From Candidatus Heimdallarchaeota archaeon (GTDB taxonomy: Archaea > Asgardarchaeota > Heimdallarchaeia > Heimdallarchaeales > Heimdallarchaeaceae), in NCBI GenBank assembly GCA_021399345.1, contig JAAFKI010000112.1, positions 1-64,000 of the forward strand: DNA of 64,000 bases, written 5' to 3'. The notes under the pieces are model-generated. The model made no database searches, had not been told where the DNA came from, and was given only the letters and a program-made list of their open reading frames with translations. Positions 19,445-32,583 of this stretch are shown here, piece by piece; position 1 is the first letter of the stretch; each line of letters starts with the position of its first letter. Both the position numbers and the translations under genes were made by a program.

Positions 19445-20311
19445 CTAATTCAATCCTATAATTTCTCCATCTTCTGTGTAGTCCATTTTGTTAGCAGCAG
19501 GAACTGGAGGTAATCCAGGCAACAAGAACATGCTTCCACAAACAGGAACTATAAATTTAGCACCAGTATAAAGACGAACTTCGTCTACATTTAGAGTCCA
19601 ACCTTTTGGAGCACCCATTAAACCTATTTTATCAGAAAGACTTAGTTGGGTCTTAGCCATACACATTGGGAAGTCAGCAAAACCTAGTTTTTCAATGGAT
19701 GCAATTTCCTGTAAAGCTCTAGGTGTGTATTCAACTTCTTCTGCTCCATAAACTTTCTTAGCGATTTTCTCAATTTTAACTTTGATAGGATCAGAGAATT
19801 CGTAGGCGAATTCAACATTGCCTTTACCCTTTTCAATTGCTTCTAAAACTGCTTCAGCTAAAGCGATACCACCTTCACCACCTTTCATGAAAACTTCACT
19901 TTCAGCAGCAGTAACGCCAAGAGATTCACATTTGTTTTTAATCCATGCCATTTCTTCATCATTGTCAAATGGGAAGCGGTTAATAGCAACAACAGGAGGG
20001 ATGTTGAAGACATTGAGCATATTGTCGAGATGTTTTTCAACATTTTCGAAACCTTTGGCAAGAGCATCTAGGTTTTTGATTTTAGCTTCATCAAGGTCTT
20101 TGATACCACCATGGAGCTTAAGAGCTCTTGCAGTAACAACGAGAACAACAGCGTTAGGTAAGGTATCATATTGACGAGCAACAATATCAACGAATTTTTC
20201 GAAACCTAAGTCAGCGGCGAAGCTACCTTCAGTAATGGTATAATCTGCTAATTTAAGGGCAAGTTTTGTACCAATAATAGAACTGTTACCATGAGCGATA
20301 TTAGCAAAGGG
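19445..20311 (-). pseudogene. fhs: Headless 3' half of formate--tetrahydrofolate ligase (288 codons plus stop)
   Basis: Open frame PFANIAHGNSS...DGEIIGLN collinear with intact fhs; in-frame stop at 20324-20326 and no start codon before the homology; EGSFAAD replaces EGGFAAD. Confidence 0.9.
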
Positions 20312-20521
20312 TAGTTGAAAGAATTATTAAAAACCACCAAAAGAAATCTTGCTCAAAAGTGAAACAGATTTTAGTTGAGTTAACACTATTAGAGAAAGAA
20401 TAAAAAACCTAAATGGCAAATACTGATGGTTTTTATACCCAAAATCACAGTTTTTAGAATTTCTTTTAAAGCAATAAGAGAATCTGTTTTTTGACACAAC
20501 TAATTTAAGGAAGGATAAAAA

Positions 20522-21157
20522 ATGAAAAAACAACAAATAAAGAAAAGGACTCTAATTTGTTCATTTATCTTATTTTCAACATTATTACTAATTACACCTA
20601 TTCACACATTAGCAATACAACCAGAGAATGTTGATGTGACTATAAGGATTGCAGATTTTGACACTCTTTATAAAGATAAGGATGTGACTTCCGCTGGAGA
20701 CGTTTATTTTAAGATAATACATGATACAGGAACAGAAGAATCAGGTACAGCTTGGAATGACTATGAAGACGAAGGCGATTATGATTTATCTAATACTGAT
20801 TTTGATGGAAATGGATATTATGATGAACAATACTGGAATGTTGATTTGGATACTGGAGATCTTACATGGATCATAGAAGTTTGGGATGAAGACAATGTCG
20901 GAGGAGATGATCTATTATTTAGAGGTACTTTAACAATAAAAGATCCAGGGACATCAGGATCCCATTCAAATGATAATGTTATTGCTTATGACGAGTGGAT
21001 TTGGAGTGTGTACCTACAAGAGTTAATACCTTGGGGATTTACTACTAATACTGATTATCTGCGCTTTCAATGGGATGATGGTCCTCATAAACAGACTTCA
21101 ACTTGGAAAATATCTAATGGATTAATATTATGGATATCACTCTACTACTCAATTTAG
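20522..21157 (+). CDS. Secreted acidic protein with C2-like Ca2+-binding domain
   Basis: Signal peptide; KDVTSAGDVYFKI and IIEVWDEDNVGGDDLL match C2 loops 1 and 3; DFDGNG motif. Confidence 0.6.
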   Translation: MKKQQIKKRTLICSFILFSTLLLITPIHTLAIQPENVDVTIRIADFDTLYKDKDVTSAGDVYFKIIHDTGTEESGTAWNDYEDEGDYDLSNTDFDGNGYYDEQYWNVDLDTGDLTWIIEVWDEDNVGGDDLLFRGTLTIKDPGTSGSHSNDNVIAYDEWIWSVYLQELIPWGFTTNTDYLRFQWDDGPHKQTSTWKISNGLILWISLYYSI

Positions 21158-21282
21158 AAATTAATGCTTTATGGTTTGATTGGTCAAATCATAAATTTTT
21201 TTAAAATTTGATAGAATTTAAAAAGAACTATTTAAATTAAGAAAACTTAAAGTATTGATTTAACAATTAAGGATTTGAGATA

Positions 21283-23985
21283 ATGAAGTGGAATAAATTA
21301 AAGATATCAGTTCTTTTGTTCTTACCGTTATTATTTTCAAGCGTTACTACTTATATTGTCTATTCAGGTCATTTTAACAACTATCATGAGCATTTTAATA
21401 TATTAATGACAGAAACTTTTCCTGATTATTCCTTTTTAATTGAAGATGAACTAAGTCTACTTGATCCTGATTTTGATGTGAACACTTTTCTCAACCAGTT
21501 CAAACTAGAATCTGTTGTGTATATTGGACGTTTAAGGTGTGAATTAGTGATTAATTCAAGCATCTATGACACTGTGGTTTTTTGGGCACCAGAAGAATAT
21601 TATTTAGAGCATAGTAAGGTAGCTATTGGAGAAAATGAAATTTTGATGGATGAGTCACTCTCAATATTGGAAAATATTGAAGTAAATTTCGATCTTTCTT
21701 TAAACTTCAGTTATGCTAGTAACAATATAACAATATCAACCCAAGTAGGGAATTTTGTTGATTTTGAAGATGTCTTAACTAGTAGAGTTGTTTCACGAAG
21801 TTGGTCCAGATCAGAAGGGGAAAAATACTTGTTTCTTTTATCAGAAACTTTTGAAGATTTGTTTGGTGATTTCTTTGAAAATCTCACGATTCAGTATCTT
21901 CCGTTATTCGAATTTTCAGAAGCTATCATTAGTTCATATTTACCTCACAAATTAGACGACTTCTTGGTTGAGAGAAGGATTGAGCTAGATTCTTACTTTG
22001 ATTATACATATGATAGCACTAATAGTTATGAGAGGAACTTAAGAACAAATTCACTGGAATGGCATCTATCCAATTTTAATGACAACTTCAAGGAATATAC
22101 TTGGTCTCGTGTTGCAGTGTTTTATATAATCTGTTTTGGTATTAGTGCAGTTGTCATAACTAATACTTCTCGGGGATTTTTCAAATCACAAAAAGAACGA
22201 ATAGAATTTTACTATTTAAGAGGGAGCAAAAAATCTGATTTGCTTTATGATTTCTTAAAACTTGAAACTAAATTGGCATTTTATGTCTTGTTAGGCGGAT
22301 TCTTGGTATCAACTCTTATTATGGGAGTTTTACAGCCAAAATTGTTAGCTTCTACTTATAACCATGTATTGAATCTGTTGGTAAATTGTATAACAGCAAT
22401 TATTTATTGTTCCATACAATTCGTAGTATCAGCTGATAGTCTATCAATGATTTACAGAAGAAATGAGAAGAAGGAGAAATTTTTACTTAATAAGATAATC
22501 ATTGCATTTAAAAACGGATTACAATGGATTATTCTTTGCATAGCTTTAGCAGTATCATTATACCTTTACCTTTTTACCGGTATAGAGAAAGTGGAGAAGA
22601 GTGCAGTTTTTTTATATATTTTTACCTTGGTTATTGCCTTAATCTTACTTCTTGTAATCTCAAAAAGAACAATCGTATGGATAGGAGAAAAATTCATTTC
22701 ACTTCTGAACAGTCTCTCTTCTATAAGCAAATATACTCTAAAAGTATCAAAGAAAGTAATTAGAGTTAATTCTCTGGTAATTCAGATGTTAATCCTATTT
22801 GGTTTTATATGTTCCTTTTTTGTAGTAGGTTTAGATACAATCAACCATTACAATTACATCAATCAACAAAATAATGCAATTGGTGAAATAATTATAAATT
22901 ATCCTGAAGAAAATGCAGAATTGGTTAAAACTCAGTTAGCTAATTTTACTGCACAATATTTTGAAATTGAATATGTTGTATCTCCGCTGGATTTTGTAAT
23001 TGATGTTAATACAAGTATTGCTAGTGGATTGACAGTTTTTCTCCTGAATAGTAGCACGATAGCACAATTTTTCAATTCTGATATTGTCAAAAAGAAATAC
23101 TCAGGCTCTTATGAACCTACTCAGTTGGTTACAGATTTAAATACGGATTGGAACCTGTCAATAATTAATCGTGCTTATGCTGATCAAGCTACTATTCAAC
23201 TTGGTGAAACAACAGAACTTCCTCTCCCAATAATAGTTGATCCATGGGTTTATCCAGAAGATTTGTATAATATTACAATATTAGATATTGTAGAGTTTGT
23301 ACCATTTTTTTCAGGAATTTCACAAGAAAAACCTTTTGTACTTTTGAACAAGGAAATAACTCAAAATAGAACAAAAATAGATGTCATCTCACTGTACCAA
23401 ATTCTTTGGCTTAATGAGAATAGTTCTGTGGAAAACCTTGAAGAATACATACTAGATATAAATAGAGAATTTAATCTCGGAATAGAGATTTATAATCTAG
23501 ATGAGAAAAGCCTATTCACTGATGAATATTGGCTTCCTAATGTTTTACAGACACTAATTTTATCTCTTTTTACAGTTTTAATGATATGTTTAATTTTCCT
23601 CTTTTTTGTTTTCTATGTGGATGTCATTAGATTTCAAATTCATAATTTTCGAACATTCTTTGCACGAGGTTTATCTATAAAGAAAGGTATCATTTATTCA
23701 GTTCTTCCAGTTTTTCTATTTACTTTAGGTTACATAATATTTGGATTTGTATTAGGTGTATCTTTACTGTCAATTGTACTTACAACTATACAACCTGAAT
23801 ACTATCTGAGAATACCTGTTGCTATTTTTCCATATTCTTTTCTTGTGTTTATAGGTCAAATAACTCTTTTGTGTTGTGCATTGTTTCTAGCAAGTTTAAT
23901 TTCTTATAAGAAACTACAGCAACAAATACCCACAATAGATAGAATTGTTTTCACAGTTTTCAAGGATGAAGGAGGTATTATATGA
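21283..23985 (+). CDS. FtsX/MacB-like ABC permease (duplicated architecture)
   Basis: Two large extracytoplasmic domains, each followed by TM clusters with YYLRGSKKS and FARGLSIKK coupling motifs. Confidence 0.75.
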   Translation: MKWNKLKISVLLFLPLLFSSVTTYIVYSGHFNNYHEHFNILMTETFPDYSFLIEDELSLLDPDFDVNTFLNQFKLESVVYIGRLRCELVINSSIYDTVVFWAPEEYYLEHSKVAIGENEILMDESLSILENIEVNFDLSLNFSYASNNITISTQVGNFVDFEDVLTSRVVSRSWSRSEGEKYLFLLSETFEDLFGDFFENLTIQYLPLFEFSEAIISSYLPHKLDDFLVERRIELDSYFDYTYDSTNSYERNLRTNSLEWHLSNFNDNFKEYTWSRVAVFYIICFGISAVVITNTSRGFFKSQKERIEFYYLRGSKKSDLLYDFLKLETKLAFYVLLGGFLVSTLIMGVLQPKLLASTYNHVLNLLVNCITAIIYCSIQFVVSADSLSMIYRRNEKKEKFLLNKIIIAFKNGLQWIILCIALAVSLYLYLFTGIEKVEKSAVFLYIFTLVIALILLLVISKRTIVWIGEKFISLLNSLSSISKYTLKVSKKVIRVNSLVIQMLILFGFICSFFVVGLDTINHYNYINQQNNAIGEIIINYPEENAELVKTQLANFTAQYFEIEYVVSPLDFVIDVNTSIASGLTVFLLNSSTIAQFFNSDIVKKKYSGSYEPTQLVTDLNTDWNLSIINRAYADQATIQLGETTELPLPIIVDPWVYPEDLYNITILDIVEFVPFFSGISQEKPFVLLNKEITQNRTKIDVISLYQILWLNENSSVENLEEYILDINREFNLGIEIYNLDEKSLFTDEYWLPNVLQTLILSLFTVLMICLIFLFFVFYVDVIRFQIHNFRTFFARGLSIKKGIIYSVLPVFLFTLGYIIFGFVLGVSLLSIVLTTIQPEYYLRIPVAIFPYSFLVFIGQITLLCCALFLASLISYKKLQQQIPTIDRIVFTVFKDEGGII

Positions 23986-24025
23986 AAAAAAACTCGATAA
24001 ATATAGTAATTCAGGAGAGAAAAGT

Positions 24026-24712
24026 ATGAGTAGAAGGAAAAGTACTATTATTGAAATTTCTAACTTAGTTCATATCTACAAGGGTAAGATCGAAACTACA
24101 GCTTTAGCAGGTGTTAATCTTTCCGTCAAAAAAGGAGAACGCTTGGTTATTAGAGGAAAATCAGGAATTGGTAAAACAACATTACTACACTGTATTGCAG
24201 GAATACTTCGACCTACTGAAGGTAGAATTCTTGTAGACAATCAAGAAATTCTTCAGTATAACGAAAATCAACTAGCTGACTACAGATGTAAAACTGTAGG
24301 TTTAATCTATCAGTCTTACAATTTAGCGCAGTTCCTAACTGTTAAAGAAAATATAGAATTTCCTATGTTATTGGTAAAAACACCACAAGAAAAAAGAGAA
24401 AAACGTATTGAAGAGCTAACAGAATTTCTAGAAATTAGTAGATACCTTGAGCAAAAACCTGAATTCTTGAGTGGAGGGGAACAACAACGAGTTGCGATTG
24501 CGATTGCTTTAGCAAATAATCCTCCCATAATATTAGCAGATGAACCCACAGGTAATATTGATGTAGAAACTGCAGAAATAGTTTACACCAATTTATCTCA
24601 TATGTGTCAAATCTATAACACAACCCTTGTGATAGCATCACATGATCCTGAAGCTTCAAAATATACAGAAAGAGAGGTAATTCTAACAAGATTAGAATCG
24701 AAAAAAAGATAA
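24026..24712 (+). CDS. ABC transporter ATP-binding protein (LolD/MacB-like)
   Basis: [28 protein letters not shown]; start moved to MSRRK. Confidence 0.93.
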
Positions 24713-24716
24713 AAAA

Positions 24717-25148
24717 ATGAAGATTAGTAGAAGAAAGAAACTTATCGAATATAGAAAAGTCTGGGATGAATTTGCAGATTGGACTGCAGAAAGTTTTCAA
24801 GCAAATAAACTTGCTTGGCATAATGGAGTACAGATAGGAGAGGGAATGAGATTCAGATACCATTTAGGTAAATGGCAATTTATGGATGACAGTGGAAATT
24901 GGAATGATGCTCTATTGGGAACAGCTGCAAGATGTGCACAGTCTGGACCAAATTCATTGAATATATATCAAGATGTATTTGGAGCATCAGGAAGGGGTGG
25001 TATGAACATCTTTCCATGTCATAATGGTTTATTCCAGTATTATGTAGACAAAATAATCAATGAATTTTGCAGGTTGATACTAAACAAACCAGAAAGTAAA
25101 AAAATAGGAGATATAATAGACTATATTTTAACGAATTGGAGTTTCTAA
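24717..25148 (+). CDS. Hypothetical Trp/Gly-rich protein
   Basis: 143 aa ORF starting 4 bp after the ABC ATPase; no recognised family. Confidence 0.5.
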   Translation: MKISRRKKLIEYRKVWDEFADWTAESFQANKLAWHNGVQIGEGMRFRYHLGKWQFMDDSGNWNDALLGTAARCAQSGPNSLNIYQDVFGASGRGGMNIFPCHNGLFQYYVDKIINEFCRLILNKPESKKIGDIIDYILTNWSF

Positions 25149-25166
25149 AAATAATAAAAAGTAGGG

Positions 25167-26858
25167 TTAGTTCAACCCTATAATATCTCCATCTTCTGTA
25201 TAGTCCATCCTGTTAGCAGCAGGAACGGGAGGTAGTCCAGGTAACAAGAACATGCTTCCACAAACAGGAACTATAAATTTAGCACCTGTATAAAGACGAA
25301 CTTCGTCTACATTCAAAGTCCAGCCTTTTGGAGCACCCATTAAACCAATTTTATCAGAAAGACTAAGTTGGGTCTTAGCCATACAGAGAGGAAAATCAGA
25401 AAAACCTAGAGTTTCAATAACTTTGATGTCTTGATCAGCTTGAGGAGAATACTCAACATCTTTAGCACCATAGATCTTGGTAGCGATTTTTTCAATCTTG
25501 GTTTTAATAGAATCGGAGAATTCATAAGCAAATTTGACATCGCCAGAACCTTTTTCGATGGCAGCAAGAACGGCTTCAGCGAGGTCGAGACCACCCTCAC
25601 CACCTTTCATGAAAACTTCACTTTCAGCAGCAGTGACGCCAAGAGATTCGCATTTCTGTTTGATCCAAGCCATTTCTTCATCATTGTCGAAGGGGAAGCG
25701 GTTAATAGCAACAACAGGAGGGATGTTGAAGACATTGAGCATATTGTCGAGATGTTTTTCGACATTTTCGAAACCTTTGGCAAGAGCGTCGAGGTTCTTT
25801 TCTTTGGCTTGATCCAAATCTTTGATTCCACCATGGAGCTTGAGAGCTCTTGCAGTAACAACGAGAACAACAGCATTGGGGAGAGTGTCATACTGGCGAG
25901 CGACAATGTCAACGAATTTTTCGAAACCTAAGTCAGCAGCAAAACCGCCTTCAGTAATGGTATAATCAGCCAATTTGAGAGCGAGCTTGGTGCCGATGAT
26001 GCTAGAATTGCCGTGGGCAACGTTCGCGAAGGGTCCTGCGTGAATGAATCCTGGTACTCCTTCAAAGTTTTGCACTAGGTTTGGTTTTATTGCATCTTTC
26101 AGTATTAGTGTCATAGCTCCTACTGCTTCAATATCCTTTGCGAATACTGGTTTATCATCATAAGTATATCCTAATAGAATACTTCCTAACCTTTCTTTTA
26201 GTTCTCCCACATCAGCCGATAGAGCTAAAATAGCCATTATTTCTGAAGCTGCTGTGATAACAAAACCTGTGTTTAGGATGTCACCACCCATTCTTCTTCC
26301 ACCAAGTCCAGTAATGATATTTCTTAATGCTCTATCATTCATATCTATTGTTCTTGGCCAAGTTACTTTGGTTGGATCAATATTACACTTATTTCCTTTT
26401 GTCAAATGATTATCAAGCAAAGCTGCAAGTAAATTATGAGCAGAAGTAATTGCATGTATATCTCCTGTAAAGTGCAGATTTATGTCCCACATTGGAAACA
26501 CTTGAGAGTATCCACCACCTGTAGCTCCTCCTTTTATTCCAAAAGTTGGTCCCATACTTGGTTCTCTTAATGCAAACATTACACTTTTGCCTATCTTTTG
26601 CATTGCTTGAGATAGACCTATTGTGGTAACTGTCTTTCCTTCACCAGCTCTTGAAGCAGTCATTGCTGTAACTGCAATTAGTTTTCCATTTGGTTTTTCA
26701 GAATTTAGTATCTTTAGCATGGTTTGATAGTTTATTTTTGCTACATACTTTCCAAATTGCTCTAGGTCATCTTCTTCTAGACCTACTTTTGCAGCAATTT
26801 CTCTAATGTTTTTCATATCTTTTGCTTTTTCTTGAGCAATTTCAATGTCTTTCTTCAT
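25167..26858 (-). CDS. fhs: Formate--tetrahydrofolate ligase
   Basis: GEGKTVTT, LREPSMGP, GGGYSQV, HFTGD, GPFANVAHG, CMAKTQ, PGLP motifs. Confidence 0.97.
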   Translation of the reverse strand: MKKDIEIAQEKAKDMKNIREIAAKVGLEEDDLEQFGKYVAKINYQTMLKILNSEKPNGKLIAVTAMTASRAGEGKTVTTIGLSQAMQKIGKSVMFALREPSMGPTFGIKGGATGGGYSQVFPMWDINLHFTGDIHAITSAHNLLAALLDNHLTKGNKCNIDPTKVTWPRTIDMNDRALRNIITGLGGRRMGGDILNTGFVITAASEIMAILALSADVGELKERLGSILLGYTYDDKPVFAKDIEAVGAMTLILKDAIKPNLVQNFEGVPGFIHAGPFANVAHGNSSIIGTKLALKLADYTITEGGFAADLGFEKFVDIVARQYDTLPNAVVLVVTARALKLHGGIKDLDQAKEKNLDALAKGFENVEKHLDNMLNVFNIPPVVAINRFPFDNDEEMAWIKQKCESLGVTAAESEVFMKGGEGGLDLAEAVLAAIEKGSGDVKFAYEFSDSIKTKIEKIATKIYGAKDVEYSPQADQDIKVIETLGFSDFPLCMAKTQLSLSDKIGLMGAPKGWTLNVDEVRLYTGAKFIVPVCGSMFLLPGLPPVPAANRMDYTEDGDIIGLN

Positions 26859-27155
26859 TATAATCATCATCTAAGATTGTTAGTTGAACCCCCTTTCTGA
26901 GTTTCAATTAAAAAATATTTGGATGTAGTAATAATACTGGTTTCAACAATCTTGTTCCGTTAAAACCATATTTAAAGAAAATTTATTTGCTAAATCATAT
27001 AACAGAATTCAGATAATCAGATTACTCACTATTTTAATAGCAAAAACCCTTTTCTAATAATTTTTTCTGATAGAATGTTGTCAAATAGATACGTTCTAAA
27101 ATGTCCATATCCCTTGAAGCATAGAATTCAAAATCATAGAGTAGTGTATATTTTA

Positions 27156-31214: not shown

Positions 31215-31356
31215 TTTCCTACAAATTTAGCTATTTTTTTTCATTGAAACTGAAAGATTATGTCTCAAGAGAGAAAATATGTAGACAAAATGTTTATATA
31301 GAGTGTCAACATGTTGTTTACTTGGTTCTATTTAAACAGAATCTCAAGGTGAAAAA

Positions 31357-32583
31357 ATGAAAAAAAAAGCTATAATGTCAAGAAGAAAGATTATAGTGAT
31401 AACTGTTACTACACTAATTATCTTTTCTCTAAATATGAGTACAACCGTTAGTATGTCAACCGTGGACGATTACAAAATATCCAAACCTTTTAATCTAGCT
31501 TTAACACTTCATGGCCCCATAGAAATAATCACTGATGATAATTTTACTGATTATGGTTTTCCTGGCTCAGGAACAGATGTAGACCCTTACATTATTCAAG
31601 AATATAACATTACTACCACAAGCGGAAGTGGAATTTCCATAGAAGATACGACTAAGTATTTTGTTATTCGTGACTGTTATATTGATGCTGATATTTATGG
31701 TATTTACATTAGTTATGTTGCTGATGGAACAGCTACAATCATAAATAACATTTGTACTAATAACAATGATGATGGTATCTTTCTGTGTCATGCTAGTTTT
31801 TCTACTCTGATTAATAACACTTGTACTAACAACGACTACGGTATCTGTATGCTTGGTTCTGCTAGTTCTACTCTGACTGATAACACTTGTAATAACAACA
31901 ATAAGGGAATCAATCTGTATAGTTGTCTTAGTTCTACTCTGACTGATAACACTTGTACAAGCAACAATTATGGTATCTATCTGTATAGTTCTTCTGGTTC
32001 AACTCTTGCAGATAACACTTGTACCAACAACTTGGATGGTATCAATGTGGGACGTTCTTCTTTTTCTACTCTGACTGATAACACTTGTACAAACAACATT
32101 GACAGAGGAATCTATGTAGAGTATTCTTCTGAAGTTACTCTGACTGATAACACTTGTACAAACAACAATTATGGTATCTATCTGCTTAATTCTTATACTT
32201 GTCTTTTTACTGACAATCTTTTACAAGAAAATGAAGAATATGGAATCTACTTAAATTCTCTTTCTGATGACACCATTATTTATCACAATTATTTTGTAGA
32301 CAATAACCTAGGAGGTATTTCACAAGCTAATGATAATGGAACAAATAATTTCTGGTGTAATAAAGAAACCAAACTAGGGAATTACTGGTCTGGTCACGAG
32401 AAAGGAAAATATATTATTGATGGTTCTGCTAATTCAACGGATCCATATCCACTCAAAGAAATTTACGGCACTGAAAGAATCGGAGGTTCTTCTATCCTTC
32501 TAATTTCCTTTATGATTTCAACTATTCTGATTACTCTTGTTAGAAGAAAGAGAAAACACGAAAAGGACGTTAATAATAAATGA
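31357..32583 (+). CDS. Surface-anchored right-handed beta-helix (NosD/pectate lyase-like) protein
   Basis: Signal/TM N-terminus, G.GT..DPYII, PbH1 repeats (NTC.NN..GI.L), GNYW..D.YPL, C-terminal TM plus basic tail. Confidence 0.88.
   Translation: MKKKAIMSRRKIIVITVTTLIIFSLNMSTTVSMSTVDDYKISKPFNLALTLHGPIEIITDDNFTDYGFPGSGTDVDPYIIQEYNITTTSGSGISIEDTTKYFVIRDCYIDADIYGIYISYVADGTATIINNICTNNNDDGIFLCHASFSTLINNTCTNNDYGICMLGSASSTLTDNTCNNNNKGINLYSCLSSTLTDNTCTSNNYGIYLYSSSGSTLADNTCTNNLDGINVGRSSFSTLTDNTCTNNIDRGIYVEYSSEVTLTDNTCTNNNYGIYLLNSYTCLFTDNLLQENEEYGIYLNSLSDDTIIYHNYFVDNNLGGISQANDNGTNNFWCNKETKLGNYWSGHEKGKYIIDGSANSTDPYPLKEIYGTERIGGSSILLISFMISTILITLVRRKRKHEKDVNNK
31801..32199 (+). repeat. Six in-frame 66-69 bp tandem repeats
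   Basis: Units start at 31801, 31867, 31933, 31999, 32065 and 32134 and share a core close to ACTCTGACTGATAACACTTGT. Confidence 0.9.

Follow-up and report, generated by a model that had tools for sequence, protein, structure and literature searches.

A run of 18 recoded codons in a Heimdallarchaeial fhs gene lies at a recurrent, position-specific insertion seam

Background

The e14/phage 21 element integrates in the icd gene of E. coli and leaves a displaced tail of the gene, icdC, behind (Hill et al. 1989, as described in PMC13626634), and recombination between icd and icdC deletes the DNA between them and gives rise to chimeric genes (PMC13626634). A related arrangement is described here for fhs, the gene encoding formate-tetrahydrofolate ligase, in G000, a metagenome-assembled genome (MAG) of a Heimdallarchaeial (Asgard) archaeon (3.27 Mb, 88.6% complete), where the stretch analysed, hereafter the window, comprises bases 1-64000 of contig C41. 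The 3' part of fhs occurs twice in this window, in direct orientation and flanking an insert, with the reading frame restored in the intact gene, and the two copies differ in every one of 18 consecutive codons beside the junction. As at icd, the insert lies inside a housekeeping gene, the replacement 3' end is rich in synonymous changes, the old end is found downstream as a pseudogene, and recombination between both ends would yield chimeric functional genes. Unlike the fhs insert, e14 brings an integrase of its own, its ends are defined, and it replaces only the last tens of icd codons, about 165 bp. The fhs gene in contrast has half its length (867 bp) exchanged at a mid-gene catalytic motif, by an insert without a recombinase and with variable cargo borders, in an Asgard host.

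Other described systems share features with this locus. Cis-mobilizable elements (CIMEs) and tandem accretion at the gene 3' ends used by integrative and conjugative elements or integrative and mobilizable elements also involve recombinase-less units with gene-end repeats stacked at one site. For the fhs site, however, no parent element and no related autonomous integrase element was found in the fhs contexts examined, and in place of short att cores there are diverged repeats of hundreds of bases. Insertions with long target duplication (ILTD) likewise place a recombinase-free gene block between long direct target repeats, which are approximately 95-100% identical and enclose restriction-modification genes (Nobusato 2000; Furuta et al. 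2010, PMC2853133), whereas the fhs repeats share 84% identity and belong to different allele lineages. In the C-terminal displacement of Rhs/CdiA, the old 3' end is displaced by a new one that brings adjacent genes with it, and persists as an orphan from a conserved motif onwards, so that arrays and a mosaic gene result, as at fhs. Rhs/CdiA tips encode different toxins with matching immunity genes, while both fhs ends encode the same FTHFS half (90% amino-acid identity, 28 of 288 positions changed) and the cargo is an unrelated ABC transporter. In the intronless homing of free-standing homing endonuclease genes, such as the T-even phage seg and mob genes, a break is made in a conserved gene, a short tract is co-converted and silent changes protect the carriers. 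The fhs locus would resemble this process in a break within a conserved gene, a co-converted short flanking tract and silently changed carrier alleles, but no endonuclease gene is linked to the fhs inserts and homing does not duplicate the 3' part of its target.

The fhs locus of G000 is a variant of gene-end-replacing insertion, and it is unusual in that half a gene is exchanged, at a catalytic motif, by a recombinase-free unit, and recurrently across an Asgard genus. Catalogues of Asgard mobile elements (PMC8813620, PMC11529989) describe integrase-, transposase- and virus-borne elements, and a half-gene-swap route lies outside these catalogues as they stand.

Results and discussion

An intact fhs gene, a displaced half and 18 recoded codons

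The intact fhs gene (25167..26870, reverse strand) encodes 567 amino acids, matches the full-length FTHFS family (Pfam PF01268, E = 1.4e-237) and is a chimera of two halves. Its 5' half (codons 1-279, 26034..26870, reverse strand) is written in an A-ending codon style and its DNA is highly conserved in the genus, while the 3' half that completes the gene (codons 280-567, 25167..26033, reverse strand) is written in a C/T-ending style and is probably the incoming copy. A second copy of codons 280-567 (19445..20311, reverse strand) is in frame without a stop or frameshift over 289 codons and appears to be the former native half. The two copies are separated by a cargo block of approximately 4.9 kb (20312..25166, forward strand) with four open reading frames (ORFs) convergent with fhs. 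At the seam, the only identity that can be read between the two G000 junctions is the 6-nt sequence ACCCTT on the fhs strand, which appears as the hexamer AAGGGT at 26029..26034 and at 20307-20312.

Beyond a shared CCC (26031-26033 and 20309-20311) all 18 codons of the intact gene at 25977..26030 (reverse strand; FANVAHGNSSIIGTKLAL) differ from their counterparts in the displaced copy at 20255..20308 (reverse strand). The block differs at 22 of 54 bases with a single amino-acid change (V/I), the serine pair is spelled TCT AGC in intact fhs and AGT TCT in the remnant, and third-position GC (GC3) is 0.78 in the former and 0.17 in the latter. Across the full repeat the two copies differ at 110 of 288 codons, with a nucleotide identity of 83.6% and 28 amino-acid changes, and they share at most 68 nt without a mismatch (fhs nt 1111-1178). 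A preliminary description of the sequence had reported the 18 consecutive differing codons with one V/I change and two serine codons swapped between families, as well as an identical tract of about 68 bp further in, and each of these observations was confirmed.

The permutation check proposed in that description also came out in favour of an exceptional run. No run of 18 all-different codons arose in 200,000 uniform shuffles, the probability of such a run was 1.1e-4 in a model with per-codon variability taken from 91 ortholog pairs, and runs of at least 18 were present elsewhere in fhs in 2 of 105 ortholog pairs. The block itself differed in these 105 pairs at a mean of 12.1 of the 18 codons (maximum 16) and in no pair at all of them. 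Where one ortholog carried a GC3-rich and the other a GC3-poor block (n=36) the mean rose to 13.1 with the same maximum of 16, and the probability of 18/18 given one allele of each class was approximately 0.002. The 18-codon run is real and extreme, yet stands at the end of a continuous distribution.

The cargo comprises a secreted 211-amino-acid protein (20522-21157), a permease-like protein of 900 amino acids (21283-23985), an ABC ATPase (23945-24712) and a 143-amino-acid ORF (24717-25148), all on the forward strand. The only Pfam match among the four ORFs was ABC_tran, for the ATPase, with no recombinase or nuclease domain.

The last codons of the intact fhs and the first bases after its stop form a dyad (TAGGGTTAAACTAACCCTA; window 25140-25175) followed by a T-run, resembling a terminator. 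A dyad of this kind accompanies many fhs copies in relatives, while the G000 remnant has another hairpin followed by T9 instead.

A position-specific seam across the genus

A genus-wide search located fhs 3' fragments, either behind or apart from an intact gene, in many genomes. Eight displaced tails from six Heimdallarchaeial assemblies (G000, three in G020, G013, G016/L153, G010 and the metagenome locus L149) all start within fhs nt 837-844, and their start points scatter across these 8 nt, which lie within the DNA coding for the conserved GPFANIAHG motif. The cargo ends beside the eight tails are mostly unrelated, although those of L149 and G020:C69 are homologous. The sister genomes G011 and G013 are 96-100% identical over fhs nt 1-836 and then show mismatches at nt 837, 840, 843, 846 onwards, and the seam is therefore also a breakpoint in functional genes. 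Recombinase-less units are stacked in G020, G011, G013, G001, G007 and G008, where two to four tails lie behind fhs, and the cargo of these arrays consists of accessory genes encoding NosD/beta-helix surface proteins, caspase-like proteins, a P-type ATPase, beta-lactamase-like proteins and regulators. The loci display a fixed seam, an in-frame join to a foreign half-gene, stacks of old halves, functional genes that are mosaics, and cargo that varies in its content and borders and includes no mobility gene.

The start points of shorter tails, which begin at codons 378-548, are scattered, and such tails are probably older copies that have been truncated. Junction classes recurring at codons 449-548 were considered and rejected, as the start points differ at the DNA level and these tails too are probably old and truncated.

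On contig C22 of G020 (L031:2359-11559) fhs is followed by a NosD-like and a caspase-like gene and a tail with a frameshift at codon 440, after which the array continues with a second, diverged pair of NosD-like and caspase-like genes and a further tail that leaves the contig end. On the L149 metagenome contig an intact fhs is accompanied by 2.8 kb of cargo and by a mini-remnant (L149:11709-11771) limited to fhs codons 280-300. The mini-remnant directly adjoins the stop codon of the following gene, and its flank on the cargo side is homologous to the corresponding flank of the G020:C69 remnant. A second fixed boundary at fhs nt ~903 was hinted at by G000, by G001 compared with G009 and by this mini-remnant, and was dropped because the L149 end abuts the next gene's stop codon and the pattern in G000 is fuzzy.

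The block is the most variable part of fhs and falls into allele classes

The largest deficit of synonymous identity in fhs, measured on 15 full-length alleles, fell in the 18 codons from codon 278 onwards, with 0.36 against 0.58 expected from amino-acid-specific rates. This deficit was twice the next one, and the stretch directly follows the most conserved stretch of the gene. The G001 allele is 94-96% identical to those of G009 and G005 on both sides of the block and only 65-70% identical over nt 838-903, falling to ~60% at the core. The patch of dense differences spans nt 822-903, and G001 has cargo and tails while the other two genomes are without them.

Block GC3 was higher where the assembly contains fhs tails than where it does not (Fisher two-sided 0.026; Mann-Whitney one-sided p = 0.009), figures that overstate the significance, as the genomes are related and not independent. 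Blocks of the C-ending, GC3-rich class were mainly found in genomes with displaced tails, and the G000 remnant is GC3-poor like the tail-free genomes. Only 3 codons separate the intact block of G000 from its counterpart in G011, a genome with different cargo and without a codon-280 remnant. This near identity despite the different cargo indicates an allele lineage rather than a cassette-specific design. Incoming blocks as a whole are diverse (70-92% identical), and the block is replaced together with insertion events.

Divergence is less pronounced where the gene and its tail meet in other assemblies. Two pairs from G020 are 80% and 78% identical over the first 54 nt compared with 63-85% further in, and in a G013 pair the first 54 nt are 70% identical, in both genomes no lower than the rest of the repeat. 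At the seam of the L149 pair 12 of 20 codons differ, and the seam of a comparable locus at the ABCE1 gene (see below) shows no excess divergence. The seams of G020, L149 and ABCE1 are ordinary, and maximal recoding is therefore not general. The preliminary description had read the run as selection for maximal DNA difference at constant protein and had predicted that alleles with a cassette would be recoded while empty alleles kept the remnant-type sequence. GC3 is indeed higher in genomes with tails, but the seams of G020, L149 and ABCE1 show no such recoding. The selection argument is divided, as the block does lie at a reused seam, has the highest synonymous variability within fhs and is linked to tails, while other seams are not maximally different. 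The recoding is thus linked to the insertion seam, which supports that interpretation in part, and selection for immunity is not proven.

A proposed scar of half-gene replacement

We lean, though only slightly, towards a break or crossover at a specific position of the DNA that codes for GPFANIAHG, after which a diverged donor supplied the 3' half, the old half was displaced and the block was left as a scar. The break or crossover would fall at fhs nt 837-844, where the 5' side would pair with a diverged donor allele and copy or acquire the donor 3' half along with the DNA that follows it. In G000, foreign codons 280-567 would have been fused in frame with the resident 5' half, bringing along the ~4.9 kb of the ABC-transporter module and a small ORF, and the far end would have been joined to the resident 3' half without homology. 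The resident 3' half would have been pushed downstream to survive as the open-frame remnant, and the 18 differing codons would be the first stretch of the foreign copy, of the C-ending class shared with G011 and opposite to the T/A-ending resident class.

Later recombination between the functional gene and the tail would convert tracts or delete cargo, and the near-identical tracts further from the seam may come from mosaic fhs alleles in the genus or from a later exchange of tracts between the copies. Such recombination would need homology on both sides and could therefore not restore the last ~60 nt before the seam. These seam-proximal ~60 nt would always be the newest import, which would explain patch-only alleles such as that of G001, the peak of variability at the seam and the C-ending and T/A-ending blocks of G000. 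A donor tract at the seam that later recombination cannot erase would require no selection, and this account fits all of the points that do not support the selection reading. The seam-defining agent could be a trans-acting recombinase or a site-specific nuclease.

The two G000 copies match different allele lineages. Most of the final ~540 nt of the remnant match the functional G013 allele at 96-100% identity (91% in one 54-nt window), which would be expected of a native half that was displaced, while the functional 3' half is a mosaic that is closest to G011 in nt 838-1050 and 1261-1470. In G013 it is the G011-like type that is the displaced tail. From these similarities we infer that a G011-like half displaced a G013-like half in G000. 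One odd 5.6-kb joint was seen in the run contigs, with 42 bases on one side, and misfits a homologous deletion.

If the proposed seam mechanism is correct, Asgard archaea acquire accessory genes by swapping the back half of a core gene at one exact codon, with no mobility gene in the insert. The stacked old halves, mosaic functional genes and hypervariable scar would then form a record usable for tracing gene flow between uncultured lineages, and the question raised is what breaks or crosses DNA at motif-coding sites. A run of silent differences beside an insertion also need not imply selected immunity.

Several points weigh against a seam scar. The probability of approximately 0.002 for 18/18 under the two-allele-class model means that the run exceeds what a simple saturation model predicts. 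The heavy mosaicism of fhs alleles bars proof of which copy came in, the intact block appearing near to G011 and the remnant block having no close relative. No empty site or excised form of the G000 lineage was recovered; a search of the contigs of four runs for an empty site or joined form gave no clean joint across the insert, which, for contigs only, is not evidence of absence. All of the genomes are MAGs and mutually related, so that the counts are not independent. A scar at the seam also does not explain a strong, genus-wide switch of codon style at the same place.

A switch of codon style at the seam

At four-fold degenerate sites the 5' half of fhs has A at 0.61 and T at 0.31, while the 3' half has A at 0.08, T at 0.60 and C at 0.30, values that place each half outside the 1st/99th percentiles of 2,426 ORFs. 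The contrast of 0.83 between the halves is the largest among 835 long ORFs of the genome (next 0.48, SD 0.14). The switch is found in every allele of the genus, tail-free genomes included, and maps to codons 279-289 in pooled data and 278-306 in individual alleles, near 26000-26036 in the window. The differing switch positions of the alleles add to the variability of the block. Bacterial FTHFS genes showed no codon-style switch. Four-fold sites were used since the third-position balance of purines and pyrimidines over all codons is confounded by amino-acid composition, as in NosD proteins, and composition was ruled out as the cause by this analysis. An overlapping antisense gene was likewise rejected as the source of the pyrimidine-ending codons, with antisense stops scattered and no conserved long frame in 16 copies. 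Translational selection was also discarded, with the difference between A and T frequencies at four-fold sites being -0.05 to -0.20 in EF-1alpha, EF-2 and the thermosome genes and -0.52 in the fhs 3' half.

The NosD/beta-helix genes of G000 (e.g. window 31336-32580) have the most pyrimidine-ending third positions in the genome, partly through amino-acid composition, and this family is a frequent cargo behind fhs in relatives.

Alternative explanations

The preliminary description suggested target-site immunity, in which a trans-acting nuclease, guide-directed system or recombinase would recognise pristine PFANIAHGNSS-coding DNA, and re-spelled alleles would escape, spread in a homing-like manner and drag cargo along. 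We regard this as unlikely. The block is a genus-wide hot spot of synonymous change and, in G001, a discrete patch within otherwise near-identical alleles, but the recoded stretch of 54 bases is longer than a recognition site needs. Recoded blocks are associated with tail-bearing genomes and 18/18 differences are improbable under the class model, while the other seams are not specially recoded. The fhs and ABCE1 seams both lie in invariant catalytic-motif DNA, the usual choice of homing enzymes, yet no nuclease or recombinase domain was detected in any cargo examined. The search for matching spacers or guide RNAs advocated in the preliminary description was negative, in that all 22-mers of the reconstructed native site, compared with the whole MAG at <=3 mismatches, gave no spacer- or guide-like match, and the only near match was inside an ordinary protein-coding frame on contig C3. 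A search of the 88.6%-complete MAG for the tyrosine recombinase family PF00589 (E <= 0.001) returned nothing, not even a Xer-type protein.

A broader form of this idea is rather less likely still. It holds that Heimdallarchaeia possess a trans-acting, sequence-specific activity that breaks or recombines DNA coding for invariant catalytic motifs in core genes (GPFANIAHG of fhs, VVEHD of ABCE1), and that half-genes with a silently changed spelling escape it and pass from species to species with arbitrary downstream genes. If it exists, such an activity would in addition account for the extreme use of two codon styles in fhs.

It is very improbable that the incoming half-gene carries recombinase arm or core sites in its coding DNA, that is an attachment site (attP) inside fhs with a spelling constrained by the recombinase. 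The seam is position-specific and the 6-nt identity ACCCTT would be compatible with a crossover core, but the incoming blocks, which at 70-92% identity are not conserved among cassettes, speak against the embedded arm sites put forward in the preliminary description. No integrase was found in the cargo or the genome, and no fhs fragment was present on viral contigs in a search of IMG/VR for a viral or plasmid carrier of the fhs half. The cargo ends are also undefined, the borders of the ABC module differing between loci.

An in-place duplication, with both 3' copies generated from the target at insertion, can hardly be upheld. Long direct repeats do enclose a recombinase-free insert, as in ILTD (PMC2853133), where they are nearly identical, whereas the fhs copies differ by 16% overall and by 41% in the block. 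Divergence from the G013 ortholog is only 8% for the cargo and ~7% for orthologous DNA in the flanks, and the match of the remnant to the functional G013 allele described above is a further argument against duplication on the spot. An assembly chimera of two co-occurring strains is the least credible explanation. The sequence does come from a metagenome bin, and assemblies are frequently broken or misjoined at repeats, but independent Logan contigs of two different studies both bridge the junction of remnant and cargo and one also that of cargo and fhs, so that the locus is not an assembly artefact, and the same architecture occurs in many MAGs of different projects.

The same architecture at other genes and an ABC module at four loci

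The module of secreted protein, permease and ATPase (window 20571-24709) was present at four non-syntenic loci in four species (G000, G013, G021 and G020; the other loci are L144:7431-11386, L145 and L146). Its neighbours in G013 are an M20 peptidase gene on one side and, on the other, a displaced copy (67 nt, 82% identical) of the end of that gene, and most of the first cargo gene is lost. The equivalent site in G000 (C41:190079-191717) holds a different convergent gene, which from its sequence looks like an adenylate-forming enzyme (F390-synthetase/PaaK-like), and this exchange of content makes the site another variable spot behind a gene end.

At the ABCE1 (RLI) locus of G000 (C184:38235-41393; L227:2190-5394) the gene is followed by one convergent gene for a 220-amino-acid surface-type protein and then by a 236-nt copy of the ABCE1 3' end. 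The tail starts in the VVEHD-coding DNA, and the same start at nt 1615-1621 is found in four genomes (G000, G011, G010 and G018). The cargo at the ABCE1 site encodes a glycosylated surface-type protein with no nuclease domain. A further locus of G000 (C152:29954-34513; L228:1455-6015) consists of a TetR-family gene, genes for BNR-repeat, MarR and TauE proteins, and a 165-nt, 86%-identical copy of part of the TetR 3' region.

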